The translations under genes and the position numbers were made by a program. A stretch of 40,713 bases of DNA from a bacterium (lineage in GTDB: Bacteria; Sysuimicrobiota; Sysuimicrobiia; Sysuimicrobiales; Humicultoraceae). Positions 16,033-32,562 of the stretch are shown in pieces (within the stretch, counting starts at the first letter, position 1; each line of letters starts with the position of its first letter). The notes beneath the pieces were generated by a model. The model was not told where the DNA came from, did not search any database, and was given only the letters and a program-made list of their open reading frames with translations. The stretch is taken from the NCBI GenBank assembly GCA_041497675.1, contig JBGQGY010000018.1:1-40713 (forward strand). Reading direction: 5' to 3'.

Positions 16033-17313
16033 CTAGCGGCGACCGACGAGCAGCGGCAGGATGTCGATCCCTCGAAGGTGACCCAGCGCGCCACGCGCGG
16101 CCTCGGCTTCGGTGAATCGACCGGCGTGATCGGCCGGTGTCCCGGCGCCGGCGACCAGCAACGGCACCGGGTCGGCTGAGTGACCGCGTAGTTCGCAGGG
16201 TGTGGCGTGATCCGCGGTCACCGCGATGAGCGTCGTGGGGAGATCGAGCGCCAGGAGCAGGGTGCCGAAGAAGTATTCGTCGATCTCTTGGATCACGCGG
16301 CGCTTCGCCTCGGCGTCGCCGTCGTGCCCGGGCTCATCGGGCCCCTTCAAGTGCAGATACAGACCATCGTACTGCGGCAGCACCTCGACCGCGCGCCGCG
16401 CCCATCCCCGGTAGATCTCCGCGCGCGTGGCCGAGGCGCTGTGCGGCACTTCGACGACGCCCATGCCCAGGTACCGGGCGATGCCGCGCTCGACAGGCAT
16501 CTCGACGAAGCACCCCAACGTGACCCCGAAGCGCTCGCGCATCGACGGCACCTGCGGGATGTGGTCACCCGCGTCACGGACGAGGATCAGGTTGCCCGGC
16601 GGCTTGCCGGCGGCCTTGCGGGCGGCGTTCACGGGATGAGCATCGAGGATCGCGCGGCTCCTGTCGGTGAACTCGTTGATCAGCGCCGCGGCGGTCCGCG
16701 CGCCCGGTGAGTCGTCGAGCGGCGCGCACTCGACGACTTCCTCTTTGAACGTGGGCAGCGCCACCCCGAGCCCGCCGACCCGCGCGTACGCCGGATCAGT
16801 GTTGGACACCTGGCCGCTCAGACGTCCCTGCGTGGGATAGAAGACGACCGCACAACGGTATCCGATCGACGACGCGACGACGACCCGCGCGGGTGAGGTC
16901 TCCAGTCGGATCTGCTGCGTGACCGCATCGGCAAGCGCGCGGGCTTCTTCAGACAGCAGATTGCGGCCGACGCGACGATCGAGGATCTTCTTGCCATCAC
17001 CACCGGTGGCGAAGTTGCCACGCAGAGCCAGATCGCCGTCTTTGAACTCGATCCCGGCGCCCAATGCCTCAAGCGGCCCGCGGCCGGCGTGGTAGATCGT
17101 GGGGTCGTAGCCAAGGATCGCCGTGACAGCGACGTCGGACTCGGGCGCGATGCCCTCGCCAACGGTGGTGACCAGCGCCTGCTGACCCGCCGCCGCAAGC
17201 CGATCGAGGTGCGGCGTACGCGCCGCGGCGAGAGGCGTCCGTCCGCCCAGGGCTGCGACCGGCCGGTCGCCGAGACCATCAAGGATGACGTAGAGAATCT
17301 TCGCGCGACTCAT
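16033..17313 (-). CDS. apgM: cofactor-independent phosphoglycerate mutase, ApgM/archaeal type (alkaline phosphatase superfamily)
   Basis: ILDGLGDRP, TPL..A.TP.LD, PESDVA (phospho-Ser), GRGPLEA, ALRGNF, HLKGPDEPGHDG, TADHATP, HSADPVP; ATGA overlap with the GNAT stop. Confidence 0.9.
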   Translation of the reverse strand: MSRAKILYVILDGLGDRPVAALGGRTPLAAARTPHLDRLAAAGQQALVTTVGEGIAPESDVAVTAILGYDPTIYHAGRGPLEALGAGIEFKDGDLALRGNFATGGDGKKILDRRVGRNLLSEEARALADAVTQQIRLETSPARVVVASSIGYRCAVVFYPTQGRLSGQVSNTDPAYARVGGLGVALPTFKEEVVECAPLDDSPGARTAAALINEFTDRSRAILDAHPVNAARKAAGKPPGNLILVRDAGDHIPQVPSMRERFGVTLGCFVEMPVERGIARYLGMGVVEVPHSASATRAEIYRGWARRAVEVLPQYDGLYLHLKGPDEPGHDGDAEAKRRVIQEIDEYFFGTLLLALDLPTTLIAVTADHATPCELRGHSADPVPLLVAGAGTPADHAGRFTEAEAARGALGHLRGIDILPLLVGRR

Positions 17314-17798
17314 GCGCCCTCCGTCAGATTGAGACGATACCCCTTGATGGTGACGTCCTTCCCAGGATGGAAGTCGAGATCGGGAGCGCGGACAAAACCC
17401 ATCCGTTCGTACATACGCATCGCCACGGCCATGATCTCGTGGGTGTGCAGCGTGAGCACCGCCGCCCCGGACTGCCGCGCCCGCCGGACGCATTCGCGCA
17501 TCAGCGCCGCCCCGACGCCCTGACCGCGCGCGGCCGGCGCGACGGCCAGCAGGCGCAGTTCGGGCCATGCCAACGTGCCCGCAGGGTACAACAACACGGT
17601 ACCCACAATGGCGCCGTGCTGCTCGGCCACAATCTGTTCCGCCGGCTTCACATCCCCGAGGGTGGTCAGAATATTGCGCCGGTAGCCCTCCCAATGCGTC
17701 TGCATCACGGCCGCATACTGTTGATAGGCCGACAACGTCACGTCCCTGATGATCTCACGATCACCGTCACGCGCATCGCGGACGATCACATCCTTCAT
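17310..17798 (-). CDS. GNAT family N-acetyltransferase
   Basis: LAVAPAARGQGVGAALM (motif A), LHT, A..MYERMGF; ATG at 17798 overlaps the upstream stop (ATGA). Confidence 0.9.
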   Translation of the reverse strand: MKDVIVRDARDGDREIIRDVTLSAYQQYAAVMQTHWEGYRRNILTTLGDVKPAEQIVAEQHGAIVGTVLLYPAGTLAWPELRLLAVAPAARGQGVGAALMRECVRRARQSGAAVLTLHTHEIMAVAMRMYERMGFVRAPDLDFHPGKDVTIKGYRLNLTEGA

Positions 17799-18544
17799 CG
17801 GCGCGCCGGTTGTGTGCGCGCGGCTCCCTGCCGGCTCCGCGCGTCCAACGCGGCCTTGAGATACGCGACAATGAGGGGATGCGCCACGCCGGGGCGGGAT
17901 GTCAGCTGGGGCAAGAACAACGTCGCAACGAAGAAGGGATGGCCGCGTAACTCGACGATTCGGATCTCCCCGTCGGCGCCACGCCCGGTCGCCACCATCG
18001 ACGCTCCCAAGATCCGCTCGCGGAATGTCGGGTTGAGCCCAAAGTTGCAATGATAACTCTCCCGCGCCTCGCGGGTCCCGTACGCCACGTGCGCCAAAGA
18101 ACCCGGCGCGATCTGGATGGTCTCGGACTGTCCCACCAGCGAACATGCCAACTGCGTGATCACCAACTCGGCCGCATGAGGAGAGGTCTCTTCGTGTTCA
18201 GCGTCGCGGATCCCCAGGACGTTCCTCGCATACTCTACCAGAGCATGCTGAAAGCCCCCTCAGGTTCCGACAAACGGCCGGCCCCGCTCGCGGGCAAAGC
18301 GAATCCCATTGAGCGCACCGTTCATACTCTTGTAGGGGCTGCCCGGCGATGCCCAGATCCCGTCCGCGTCGTCCAGCCGCCGTTCCGCCGCAGGACCCTC
18401 GAGATCTTCTGTCGGGATCCACGCGATGTCGACGGTGTGATCCAGCGCGGCAGCGGCGTGTGAGAGGGCATCATTTGTCGGCACGTGCGTCGGTGACGCC
18501 GGATTGAAATCACCAATGATCGCGATACGCACGTGTTCCTGCAT
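17795..18544 (-). CDS. stand-alone CTP-synthase glutaminase-like (class I GATase fold) protein with in-frame UGA at the nucleophile; candidate selenoprotein, 249 aa, Sec95
   Basis: One frame from ATG 18544 (GGAGG RBS) to TGA 17795: IAIIGDF, DGIWASPGSPY, IRFARE..RPFVGT-[TGA 18262-18260]-GGFQHALVEYARNVLG, HPFFVATLF. SECIS-like hairpin follows the TGA. Confidence 0.82.
18228..18248 (-). promoter_or_regulatory. putative bacterial SECIS element
   Basis: mRNA GCAUGCUCU-GGU-AGAGUAUGC, a 9-bp stem (one G-U) starting 11 nt after the UGA, with a G-first apical loop 20 nt from the UGA. Confidence 0.72.
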
Positions 18545-18607
18545 CGTGCCAGCCTCCGGGGTGTACGTTGGTCCCCGATCTCTTCGCTGTTTGGCCTGTG
18601 GGTTCTT

Positions 18608-30528: not shown

Positions 30529-31707
30529 TCAGCAACCGGCGCTTAGGGCCTGATCGAAGTCGGCGATCAGATCGTCGATATCCTCGATGCCGACCGAGAC
30601 ACGAATCAGACCGTCGGTGATGCCCGCGCGCTCGCGGTGCTCCTTCGGAATATCTACGCTCGTGGTTGACGCCGGGTGCGTGACGAGCGTTTCCGTGCCA
30701 CCGAGGCTGACCGCCATCTGGCCGACGCGCAGCGACTCGACACACCGGACGCCGGCCTCATATCCTCCCCTGACTTCAAACGACAACATGCCCCCGAAAC
30801 CCCGCATCTGGCGCTGTGCGATGGCGTACCCGGGATCGGACTGCAGCCCCGGATAGTTGACGCGCGCGACACGCGGGTCCGCCGCCAGAAACTCGGCCAT
30901 CCGCCGTGCGTTGTGATTGTGGCGCTCGACACGCAGGCCCAACGTCTTGAGCCCGCGCAGCAGCAGCCAGGCGGCGAACGGATCGAGCACCGGGCCATAG
31001 ATCCGCAGAAAGTGCCTGGCCCGCGCGACCAGATCGGCGCGGCCGGCAATCACGCCCGCCGAGACGTCCGCGTGACCGCCAAGGTACTTGGTCGCGCTGT
31101 GCGCCACCAGGTCGACCCCGAGCGCGCAGGGTCTCGTGTTGTACGGCGAGGCAAAGGTGCTGTCGGCGATCGTGACCGCGCCCAGACGGCGGGCGAGCGT
31201 CACGACGGCGGCGATGTCGGTGACCTGGATCAGTGGGTTGTTCGGCGTCTCGATGTAGAGGAGCCGGGTGCCGGGCCGCGCCGCGCGTTCATAGGCGGCG
31301 ATGTCGATGGAATCGATGAGCGTGACCTCCACGCCTTGCTTCGGTAGGATCTCGTGGAAGATCTGGAACGTGGCTTGATAGACGGCGCGGGGCGAGACGA
31401 CGTGCGTGCCGGGGTCGGCGACCGCCAGAATGGCCATGGCCATCGCCCCCATCCCGGAGGCGGTGGCGAGGGCATCGTCGGCCTCTTCGAGCAGCGCCAT
31501 GCGCTCCTCGAACAGCCGCGTGGTCGGGTTGCCCCACCGCGTGTAGTACCAACCGGTGCCGCCGTCCTTGCCGAGCAGGGCGCCGTCGGCGACCGAGTCA
31601 TACGAGAACGTCGACGTCTGGTAGATCGGGTGGCTGATCGACTTGAGCGGATCCCGCACGGTGCCGCCGTGAATCGCGCGGGTATGAAAACCTCGCGTAT
31701 CCTTCAT
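30529..31707 (-). CDS. PLP-dependent trans-sulfuration enzyme (methionine gamma-lyase / cystathionine gamma-synthase/lyase family)
   Basis: PIYQTSTF, YTRWGNPT, SGMGA, ETPNNP, HSATKYLGGHAD (PLP Lys), SLGG.ETL..HP, RVSVGIED. Confidence 0.95.
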   Translation of the reverse strand: MKDTRGFHTRAIHGGTVRDPLKSISHPIYQTSTFSYDSVADGALLGKDGGTGWYYTRWGNPTTRLFEERMALLEEADDALATASGMGAMAMAILAVADPGTHVVSPRAVYQATFQIFHEILPKQGVEVTLIDSIDIAAYERAARPGTRLLYIETPNNPLIQVTDIAAVVTLARRLGAVTIADSTFASPYNTRPCALGVDLVAHSATKYLGGHADVSAGVIAGRADLVARARHFLRIYGPVLDPFAAWLLLRGLKTLGLRVERHNHNARRMAEFLAADPRVARVNYPGLQSDPGYAIAQRQMRGFGGMLSFEVRGGYEAGVRCVESLRVGQMAVSLGGTETLVTHPASTTSVDIPKEHRERAGITDGLIRVSVGIEDIDDLIADFDQALSAGC

Positions 31708-31839
31708 CGTTCATCCTCCGAAAGCGTAGACGATATCCCCGTCGCTCCTCGTATCCTACTCTGGGAGTATCGCCAGTTCATAGGGCTTGGCATCATTTCC
31801 ATCGAAACCAGGACCAGACCGTGAGAGGGAGTGACGCCG

Positions 31840-32562
31840 ATGCGCTGGCTGACTGCGTTCAGTGTCCTTTTGGTATTCCTCCTCAACACGGATGCTCCCG
31901 CCCAGATCCGTTCAAACACCGTCGACCACTTAGGATTCAACGTCACGGCGGCACCTTTGGATGTTCTGCTGCTGCGCCAGGCGATTACATCCGCGATCGA
32001 TCGTCGGGCGCTCTATGAAGCGACCAAAGCCAGGCTGCCCGCTGCGACCCCCGCCTCAGGGCCTGCCGGCGGGTGGTTTCCTCCCTCGCTTCCCCAGCAC
32101 GACCCGGAGGTGCGGAGTCATCCCTACGACGTAGCCGTCGCCAAGAGCCTGCTGGGTCAGGCGGGATTTCCGGAGGGGCAAGGGCTCACAGAACTCGAGG
32201 TGCTCTACAATCAGGGCGCACCCGTTGGCGCCTTTCGCGCCGCCGAGGGTGCGATGATCAGAGCGCAACTGGCGTCGATAGGTATTCGGGTGAAGCTTCC
32301 TGGCCAGGGGCGCCAGGGACAGTTCCAGGCGTTCCTGTTGGGGCGCGTTGTGCTGCCAAACGACGATTTCTTGAGCCGGACCTTCCTCCCGGGCGGGCCG
32401 ACCAACGCCTTCGGCTACAGGAGTCCGGAGGTCGCGGTGCTGATCGCGAGTGCTCTGAAAGAAACAGACGTTACAAAACGGATCGCCATGTTGCGAGAGG
32501 CGGAACGCCTGGTTCTGAGCGACGCCCCCGTGGTGCCGCTGATGTATTTGTACGCGCCGTGA
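31840..32562 (+). CDS. short exported protein matching only the C-terminal part of family 5 (peptide/nickel) ABC substrate-binding proteins
   Basis: Signal-like N-terminus, then LRQAITSAIDR, YDVAVAKSLLGQAGFPEG, QLASIGIRVKL, N..GYRSPEV, AERLVLSDAPVVPL. Start is GTG 31831 or ATG 31840. Confidence 0.75.
   Translation: MRWLTAFSVLLVFLLNTDAPAQIRSNTVDHLGFNVTAAPLDVLLLRQAITSAIDRRALYEATKARLPAATPASGPAGGWFPPSLPQHDPEVRSHPYDVAVAKSLLGQAGFPEGQGLTELEVLYNQGAPVGAFRAAEGAMIRAQLASIGIRVKLPGQGRQGQFQAFLLGRVVLPNDDFLSRTFLPGGPTNAFGYRSPEVAVLIASALKETDVTKRIAMLREAERLVLSDAPVVPLMYLYAP

Follow-up and report, generated by a model that had tools for sequence, protein, structure and literature searches.

The locus described here raises the question of how an in-frame TGA codon is read. 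It lies on the minus strand of contig JBGQGY010000018.1 (assembly GCA_041497675.1, a bacterium of the Humicultoraceae), within a stretch of 40,713 nucleotides (40.7 kb) that we analysed as a whole and refer to as the window. Two pieces of the open reading frame (ORF) track, 18260..18544 (94 aa) and 17795..18166 (123 aa, with an internal TTG start), lie there in one common frame, and translation through the TGA at 18262-18260 gives 249 residues, with U95 as the single odd codon and no lesion elsewhere. A sequence-only reading of the locus had described the same minus-strand frame, divided by nothing but this TGA, and the same lesion-free product of 249 aa, and both descriptions hold. Because the frame continues through the TGA without any other lesion, the two pieces are one gene, which starts with an ATG at 18544-18542 and ends with a terminator that is a TGA too (17797-17795). 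The best explanation, to which we assign a probability of roughly 0.88, is that UGA-95 is read as selenocysteine (Sec) in a stand-alone protein with the fold of glutamine amidotransferases (GATases), belonging to a known family. The gene is laid out as follows.

17795..18544, minus strand: probable selenoprotein gene of family NF004836, a complete coding sequence of 249 codons plus stop with a stand-alone class I GATase fold
18260..18262, minus strand: in-frame UGA, codon 95, probably read as selenocysteine, in the motif G-T-U-G-G-F-Q-H at the strand-helix 'nucleophile elbow'
18228..18248, minus strand: predicted upper stem-loop of the selenocysteine insertion sequence (SECIS) type, from the minimum-free-energy (MFE) structure, the match to published criteria, codon shuffles and covariation
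18553..18557, minus strand: Shine-Dalgarno-like GGAGG, 8 nt from the ATG, as read off the sequence

Three marks of a selenoprotein gene are found together at this locus, namely a UGA aligned with Cys, a SECIS hairpin, and TGA orthologues that are conserved on both sides of the codon. The proposal of the sequence-only reading that the UGA encodes Sec is supported by the match to NF004836, by Cys at the same column in 113 of 121 family sequences, by TGA in 117 of the 119 loci listed, by the hairpin and by a ratio of nonsynonymous to synonymous substitution (dN/dS) of 0.22.

Family, fold and earlier reports

The NCBIfam model NF004836 scores the read-through protein at 331.7 bits (E 1.5e-99), against a curated cut-off of 260 bits, and aligns residues 5-232 with positions 1-227 of its 228. 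With this score, with Sec in the GxUxG motif (G-T-U-G-G, residues 93-97) and as a stand-alone protein, the product belongs to the family. Pfam finds PF00117 alone on the 249 aa, with 31.1 bits versus a gathering score of 22.8. Among solved structures, 25 distinct sequences match at E <= 1e-5; all are CTP synthases and all align across the TGA, the best being 3nva (E 4e-31, residues 4-232). At the sequence level, the end-to-end match to NF004836 and the CTP synthase matches that span the TGA indicate that the read-through frame exceeds chance. The window copy also retains all invariant columns of a 109-sequence family alignment, on either side of the TGA.

An AlphaFold2 model built with the 109 family sequences reaches a mean predicted local distance difference test score of 96.0 and a predicted template modelling (TM) score of 0.93. 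When the model was compared with the PDB, all 50 ranks listed were CTP synthase glutaminase domains, with query TM scores of 0.68-0.89; the values lie at 0.83-0.89 for the listed ranks except the last two and at 0.86-0.89 for the top ten, with an identity of 24-30%. The glutaminase domain of CTP synthase PyrG (3nva, 1vco, 2vkt, 1s1m) thus has the same fold, and its elbow and surrounding helices align with the window protein. Unlike PyrG, however, the window protein has no N-terminal synthetase domain. The PyrG models NF003792 and TIGR00337 match in their C-terminal parts only, well below their cut-offs (138.7 versus 308 bits and 136.5 versus 462.75 bits), so that neither the score nor the domain content of a CTP synthase is found. 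The gene very probably encodes a Sec-containing relative of the glutaminase half of that enzyme.

The sequence-only reading had left open whether this family was already reported, and it was. In PMC12013277 (Xiao & Zhang 2025, deep-Sep), a 'glutamine amidotransferase (COG0504, PyrG)' of Desulfosediminicola ganghwensis IMCC35004 is given as a new predicted selenoprotein, with homologues elsewhere that carry TGA or Cys, and a table in a 2026 review (PMC13188914) lists NF004836 as a selenoprotein family with a GxUxG motif. The prediction thus dates from 2025 and NCBI curates the family; the window gene is a further member and no discovery. Since the family is already known and curated, novelty is low; what is added here is modest and consists of the loss of the triad, the wide spread of TGA alleles and the existence of several SECIS registers.

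The published member is close in outline to the window protein. Table S2 of PMC12013277 shows U within this motif of the Desulfosediminicola protein, which shares with the window protein the pattern G-T-U-x-G-F-Q-H, the absence of His at the triad position, the stand-alone architecture and a similar size. The residue that follows Sec is Ser in the Desulfosediminicola protein and Gly in the window protein, and the window gene appears to stem from another lineage. The D-Ala-D-Ala ligase (Ddl) encoded in the window has its closest relatives, at 70-78% identity, among proteins that NCBI assigns to Armatimonadota MAGs, which suggests the lineage, and none of the 117 Sec-type loci recovered belongs to an Armatimonadota genome. 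Cys-type members are found on plasmids of Methylobacter, Streptomyces, Klebsiella and Enterobacter (16 matches), where they are named 'CTP synthase' or 'hypothetical protein'. They share 41-47% identity with the window protein over 84-97% of its length and carry the motif G-T-C-G-G-F-Q-H, with TGC or TGT where the window has TGA and no excess of RNA structure after that codon. In annotation, gene callers split such genes or put Trp at the TGA, with 'W' in five of the 120 closest database proteins, and many sources call the relatives 'CTP synthase', which they cannot be.

How the TGA codon is read

TGA recurs at this codon far beyond the window. A degenerate pattern for G-T-TGA-G-G-F-Q-H, run over 185,579 species genomes, yielded at least 119 loci, and 117 of the 119 listed are true homologues, with a BLASTP alignment that runs across the TGA and 38-66% identity to the window protein (the best value among the loci listed, 66%, comes from a partial alignment). 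The remaining two, L057 and L077, were rejected as chance matches to the pattern. With Gly demanded after Sec by the pattern, where the published protein has Ser, 117 is a minimum. These at least 117 loci span 13 named phyla plus 11 unassigned records; among the loci listed, 26 belong to Actinomycetota, 18 to Chloroflexota, 17 to Acidobacteriota and 16 to Rokuibacteriota, besides others. The family is widespread among mostly uncultured lineages, largely represented by metagenome-assembled genomes (MAGs).

Across 121 family sequences, the column of the Sec or Cys residue holds C in 113, W in five and L in one, with no motif found in two; this count takes the entry P0001 itself as C. The single Leu belongs to P0007, a close homologue with the motif G-T-L-G-G-F-Q-H. 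Selection was followed by pairing TGA alleles from 49 loci that are 80-97% identical in nucleotide sequence. Over the 100 codons downstream of the TGA, dN/dS has a median of 0.22 and a maximum of 0.45 (93 pairs), and over the 85 codons upstream the median is 0.32 (83 pairs). The low downstream value indicates that the half of the gene behind the TGA is translated and constrained. The sequence-only reading had pointed to three places where its proposal could be probed: a TGA confined to this assembly, relaxed selection downstream of it, and the balance of Cys and TGA at the column. On all three the outcome favours Sec, as at least 117 loci in other species carry TGA at this codon, the downstream dN/dS is low, and the column is dominated by Cys with invariant columns kept on both sides.

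Sec and Cys forms do not fall into two separate groups. We placed 184 rows in a FastTree phylogeny, 76 of them labelled Sec (the window, 70 loci and the five 'W' proteins) and 108 of Cys type. This set leaves out 39 short loci (L081-L119), four proteins longer than 300 aa, the entries P0007, P0074 and P0114, and eight flanked loci whose genes are truncated or of odd length (L003, L006, L014, L025, L034, L039, L061 and L069). The two forms are intermingled across the tree, which requires at least eight changes between them, four of which are forced by well-supported branches.

The RNA just past the codon folds into a hairpin. Positions 18248-18240 and 18236-18228 form its 9-bp stem around an apical GGU loop (18239-18237), and the structure begins 11 nt past UGA-95, with a spacing of 20 nt from UGA to loop. 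The bare hairpin has a predicted energy of -10.8 kcal/mol, and below it a further helix is predicted that extends to the UGA (about 18264-18212). The criteria for bacterial SECIS elements set out in PMC13188914 comprise a loop of 3-9 nt, a stem of 4-16 bp, a G in the first two loop positions, a spacing of 16-37 nt and an MFE <= -7.5, and the window hairpin falls within every one of these limits. Like the bacterial consensus in that source, it is intracoding, lies just past the UGA and has a 3-nt loop G-G-U. A difference from the consensus is that the hairpin of this family occurs in at least three registers, which follow clades. Searched against Rfam at gathering thresholds, the window had no matches, so no curated RNA family covers the hairpin.

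Because the protein sequence is conserved here, we chose a null in which synonymous codons are shuffled within each gene. In the window copy, the 36 nt past the UGA reach -13.4 kcal/mol versus -7.9 +/- 2.1 for the shuffles, and 0.5% of the shuffles are as good. The same segment averages -10.1 kcal/mol over 118 TGA alleles versus -7.0 after shuffling, with 110 of the 118 below their own shuffled mean and 21 at the 5% level. Seven control regions of equal size in the same genes deviate from their shuffles by only -0.8 to +0.6. No excess structure is seen in any of the Cys-type controls (plasmid members, for which the fraction of shuffles as good is 0.12-0.92), although this set is small, with six usable loci of eight.

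Covariation points in the same direction. In 50 sequences that share the register of the window, 87.3% of cells pair, versus 12-59% when the partners are slid by 1-3 columns; these sequences were picked by the longest stem in the register, which inflates the pairing percentage, and they are interrelated. Five of the nine hairpin pairs change on both sides, and the covariation score is 0.145, which none of 500 shuffles reached (0.099 +/- 0.008 after shuffling). In L006, an allele from an Acidimicrobiales MAG, the near-invariant Glu104 is replaced by Gly, and the altered bases keep the hairpin paired (CATGTCCT / AGGGCATG). Here the RNA structure seems to have been preserved at the expense of a conserved residue.

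Judged from the anatomy of the locus, the hairpin past UGA-95 would recruit SelB with Sec-tRNA(Sec) during translation. UGA-95 would then be read as Sec instead of a stop, and the product would be a stand-alone protein of 249 aa with the fold of the CTP synthase glutaminase domain and Sec95 at the nucleophile elbow.

Several observations weigh against Sec at this codon. None of the 97 ORFs scanned in the window carries a selA, selB or selD domain, and a tRNA scan of the same 40.7 kb returned no genes, so no tRNA-Sec lies there. The fold of a 71-nt segment is a modest improvement at most on dinucleotide shuffles (z -1.8, with 9 of 200 as good). A strict SECIS test, defined as a perfect contiguous stem with an energy <= -7.5, is passed by 25 of the 118 TGA alleles versus 8.6% of shuffles; many 8-bp stems reach just -7.4 or -7.0, the Rokubacteria type has an internal mismatch that the strict test bars, and with geometry alone 69 of the 118 pass. 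To these come the small number of Cys-type controls and the way in which the covariation set was picked. In the portions of the literature available to us, no experimental proof of selenium in any family member was found, and both reports of the family are predictions. Finally, of the 78 true homologue loci whose flanks are complete, four have a frameshift elsewhere in the gene, as seen by tblastn matches in two frames. These alleles are L025, L034, L039 and L069, and their frameshifts could reflect either decay or errors in MAG assembly.

The frameshifts, which suggest that some copies may be decaying or mis-assembled, also bear on the strongest of the competing readings of the codon, in which the locus is a pseudogene derived from a Cys-type member and its TGA arose by nonsense mutation or by faulty assembly. 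A single base separates TGC or TGT from TGA. A pseudogene nevertheless appears quite improbable, since the TGA stands at the same codon in 117 of the 119 loci listed with homology on either side, the sequence downstream is under the constraint described above, and the window copy keeps all invariant family columns past the TGA. Also against a pseudogene stands the hairpin, which is built with A/T-ending codons (CAT, GCT, GTA, TAT) though the GC content at third codon positions of the gene is 0.75, and which is more stable than 99.5% of codon shuffles.

Still more improbable is that translation simply stops at the UGA and yields an N-terminal fragment of 94 aa, to which a second start at the TTG at 18166 may or may not add a separate C-terminal piece. 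Two points in its favour are that selenocysteine is never inserted with full efficiency and that TGA is the commonest stop in the window. A restart at the TTG, however, would drop residues 96-126, including the invariant Q99, H100 and E119, and in the AlphaFold2 model the protein is a single-domain fold whose central sheet spans the break. Termination also leaves the hairpin unexplained, as it does the restriction of recurrent TGA codons to the Cys column.

Global reassignment of TGA, which the sequence-only reading had thought unlikely, is ruled out: TGA terminates the gene itself and 21 of 36 greedily chosen ORFs of the window, and neighbouring genes merge when it is translated as sense. For the same reasons, and with Cys at the column in 113 of 121 sequences, decoding of the UGA as another amino acid (Trp, Gly or Cys, for example), whether by a reassigned code or by near-cognate read-through, is the least credible of the alternatives. 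The W found at this column in five database relatives (P0002, P0004, P0006, P0010 and P0033) speaks for it but is best explained by gene calls made under a table with TGA=Trp, and P0002 extends past the usual end of the family and finishes in W.

An elbow without the triad

With Sec taken as the residue encoded by UGA-95, the next question is what it does in the protein. In the AlphaFold2 model, residue 95 sits between a strand (91-94) and a helix (96-108), which is the nucleophile elbow, and U95 aligns with the nucleophile Cys of G-x-C-x-G-x-Q in solved CTP synthases (Cys391 in the chain numbering of 1vco). The SPGSPY segment of the window protein aligns with the VPG/LPG segment of CTP synthase, which we take to be the oxyanion region. 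Of the tests for a class I triad glutaminase, the fold with its PF00117 match and the elbow position are thus present in the window protein; the catalytic His and Glu are absent.

In E. coli CTP synthase the triad consists of Cys379, His515 and Glu517, as given in PMC9138612. The HPE motif of PyrG, which supplies the catalytic His and Glu, becomes LPQ in the window protein, as the HPE of 3nva and 1vco aligns with L211-P212-Q213. The loss is shared by the whole family, with His at the triad position in none of the 121 sequences; the motif found there is VPQ in 62, LPQ in 41, IPQ in seven, QPE in four, QPQ in one and VPP in one, with none found in five. The published Desulfosediminicola protein has QPQ. 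The sequence-only reading had placed the UGA at the catalytic Cys of a glutaminase, and this stands as far as the position goes, which does align with the nucleophile, and fails for the enzyme, which lacks the triad His and Glu. Because these two residues are lost and the synthetase domain is absent, the protein is neither a canonical triad glutaminase nor a CTP synthase. In the main text of PMC12013277, the strings 'triad' and 'nucleophil' occur nowhere.

The residues that the family conserves differ in part from those of CTP synthase. Q99, His100, Glu119, Cys166 and His222 are invariant in the 109 family sequences, and His117 and Cys134 are conserved in at least 90% of them. Glu119 is also kept in CTP synthases, whereas His100 is specific to the family. 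Besides residue 95, two Cys and several His conserved across the family occupy aligned positions where CTP synthases have other residues. The PyrG segment R-H-R-H-R-Y-E aligns with S-Y-H-C-N-F-G of the window protein, which includes the invariant Cys166. Arg468 and Arg470 are put at the GTP cleft in PMC9138612, and our own mapping of the numbering places both in the R-H-R-H-R-Y-E segment.

For the chemistry, we see roughly even odds that the thiolate or selenolate acts in covalent catalysis on an amide or a small molecule of the gamma-glutamyl type, without a His-Glu relay. In such a mechanism, the thiolate or selenolate would attack the substrate without the usual relay, possibly aided by the invariant His100, the near-invariant His117 or Glu119. 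The pKa of a selenol lies much below that of a thiol, and the selenol would accordingly be ionised without a base. This would explain the recurrent exchange of Cys for Sec at a site that has no triad His.

Less likely is that Sec95 belongs to a redox or metal-binding site built on the GATase scaffold, perhaps with Cys166 and Cys134. The loss of the triad His and Glu would fit such a site, as would the two further Cys and the several His that are conserved in the family and foreign to CTP synthase. One homologue, P0054, is fused to a DinB_2 domain, presumably of a thiol-dependent family. The abstract of a selenoprotein review ties selenoproteins chiefly to antioxidant defence, which points the same way. 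Against a redox or metal site stand the elbow G-x-U-x-G-x-Q and the SPGSPY segment, both of which are retained, and no redox partner recurs in the gene neighbourhoods. The neighbourhoods point consistently to neither chemistry and do not decide between the two.

A tentative proposal for the family as a whole is that it is not a glutaminase and may comprise either triad-less 'selenol hydrolases or transferases' of GATase fold or a Sec/Cys redox site with Cys134 and Cys166. If this is true, an ionised selenolate, or a thiolate in the Cys forms, would replace the lost His-Glu relay. Sec at the elbow of a triad-less amidotransferase fold offers a natural test of the role of selenium in non-redox or otherwise unconventional catalysis.

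Gene neighbourhood and other features of the window

One further gene adjoins the selenoprotein gene.

17310..17798, minus strand: GNAT acetyltransferase gene, 162 aa (PF00583, E 1.6e-16)

The ATG of this gene and the stop of the selenoprotein gene share bases (ATGA), and the two genes are therefore probably co-translated. Among the 141 nearest-neighbour ORFs at 78 other Sec-type loci, a Pfam scan found no GNAT. Fusions of GATase and GNAT domains occur in three of the 120 homologues listed (P0020, P0076 and P0117). The GNAT gene is context and no conserved partner.

A conserved neighbourhood was considered as a clue to function and ruled out, as the best neighbour cluster is present in only 10 of 79 loci. 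The repeats that do occur among the 141 nearest-neighbour ORFs are specific to lineages (Metallophos in six, BPD_transp_2 in five and Bac_luciferase in four). Single links to the metabolism of low-molecular-weight thiols were seen in a BshC neighbour and a neighbour of the PIG-L deacetylase family (L050:1084-2721 and L013:3333-4061), beside the DinB_2 fusion mentioned above, and provide a weak lead to function.

The selenoprotein gene is directly preceded, on the same strand, by a MazE/AbrB-type antitoxin gene (19182-18979) and a gene for a PIN-domain (VapC-like) toxin (18979-18611). Two genes downstream, a gene resembling cofactor-independent phosphoglycerate mutase spans 16033-17694. On a plasmid of Streptomyces sp. 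NBC_01708 (L125), gpmI lies two genes upstream of the Cys-type member, after aroA; the phosphoglycerate mutase shared by the two neighbourhoods may be a coincidence. The Cys-type members on the Klebsiella and Enterobacter plasmids (L122 and L123) stand beside DUF488, and that of L122 also beside DUF523, which is itself among the new predicted selenoproteins listed in PMC12013277. An Ardenticatenaceae MAG encodes a genuine full-length CTP synthase of 558 aa (CTP_synth_N plus GATase; L001:1051-2724) directly upstream of its Sec-type family gene and on the same strand.

A second selenoprotein was considered in the window, where two in-frame pieces (31354-31824 and 31831-32562) resembled a split SBP_bac_5 gene. 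It was rejected, since the upstream part is antisense noise and the real gene starts past the TGA. The ORF at 31831-32562, on the plus strand, encodes a short protein with its own signal peptide, which matches only the middle of the SBP_bac_5 profile (197-345 of 368).

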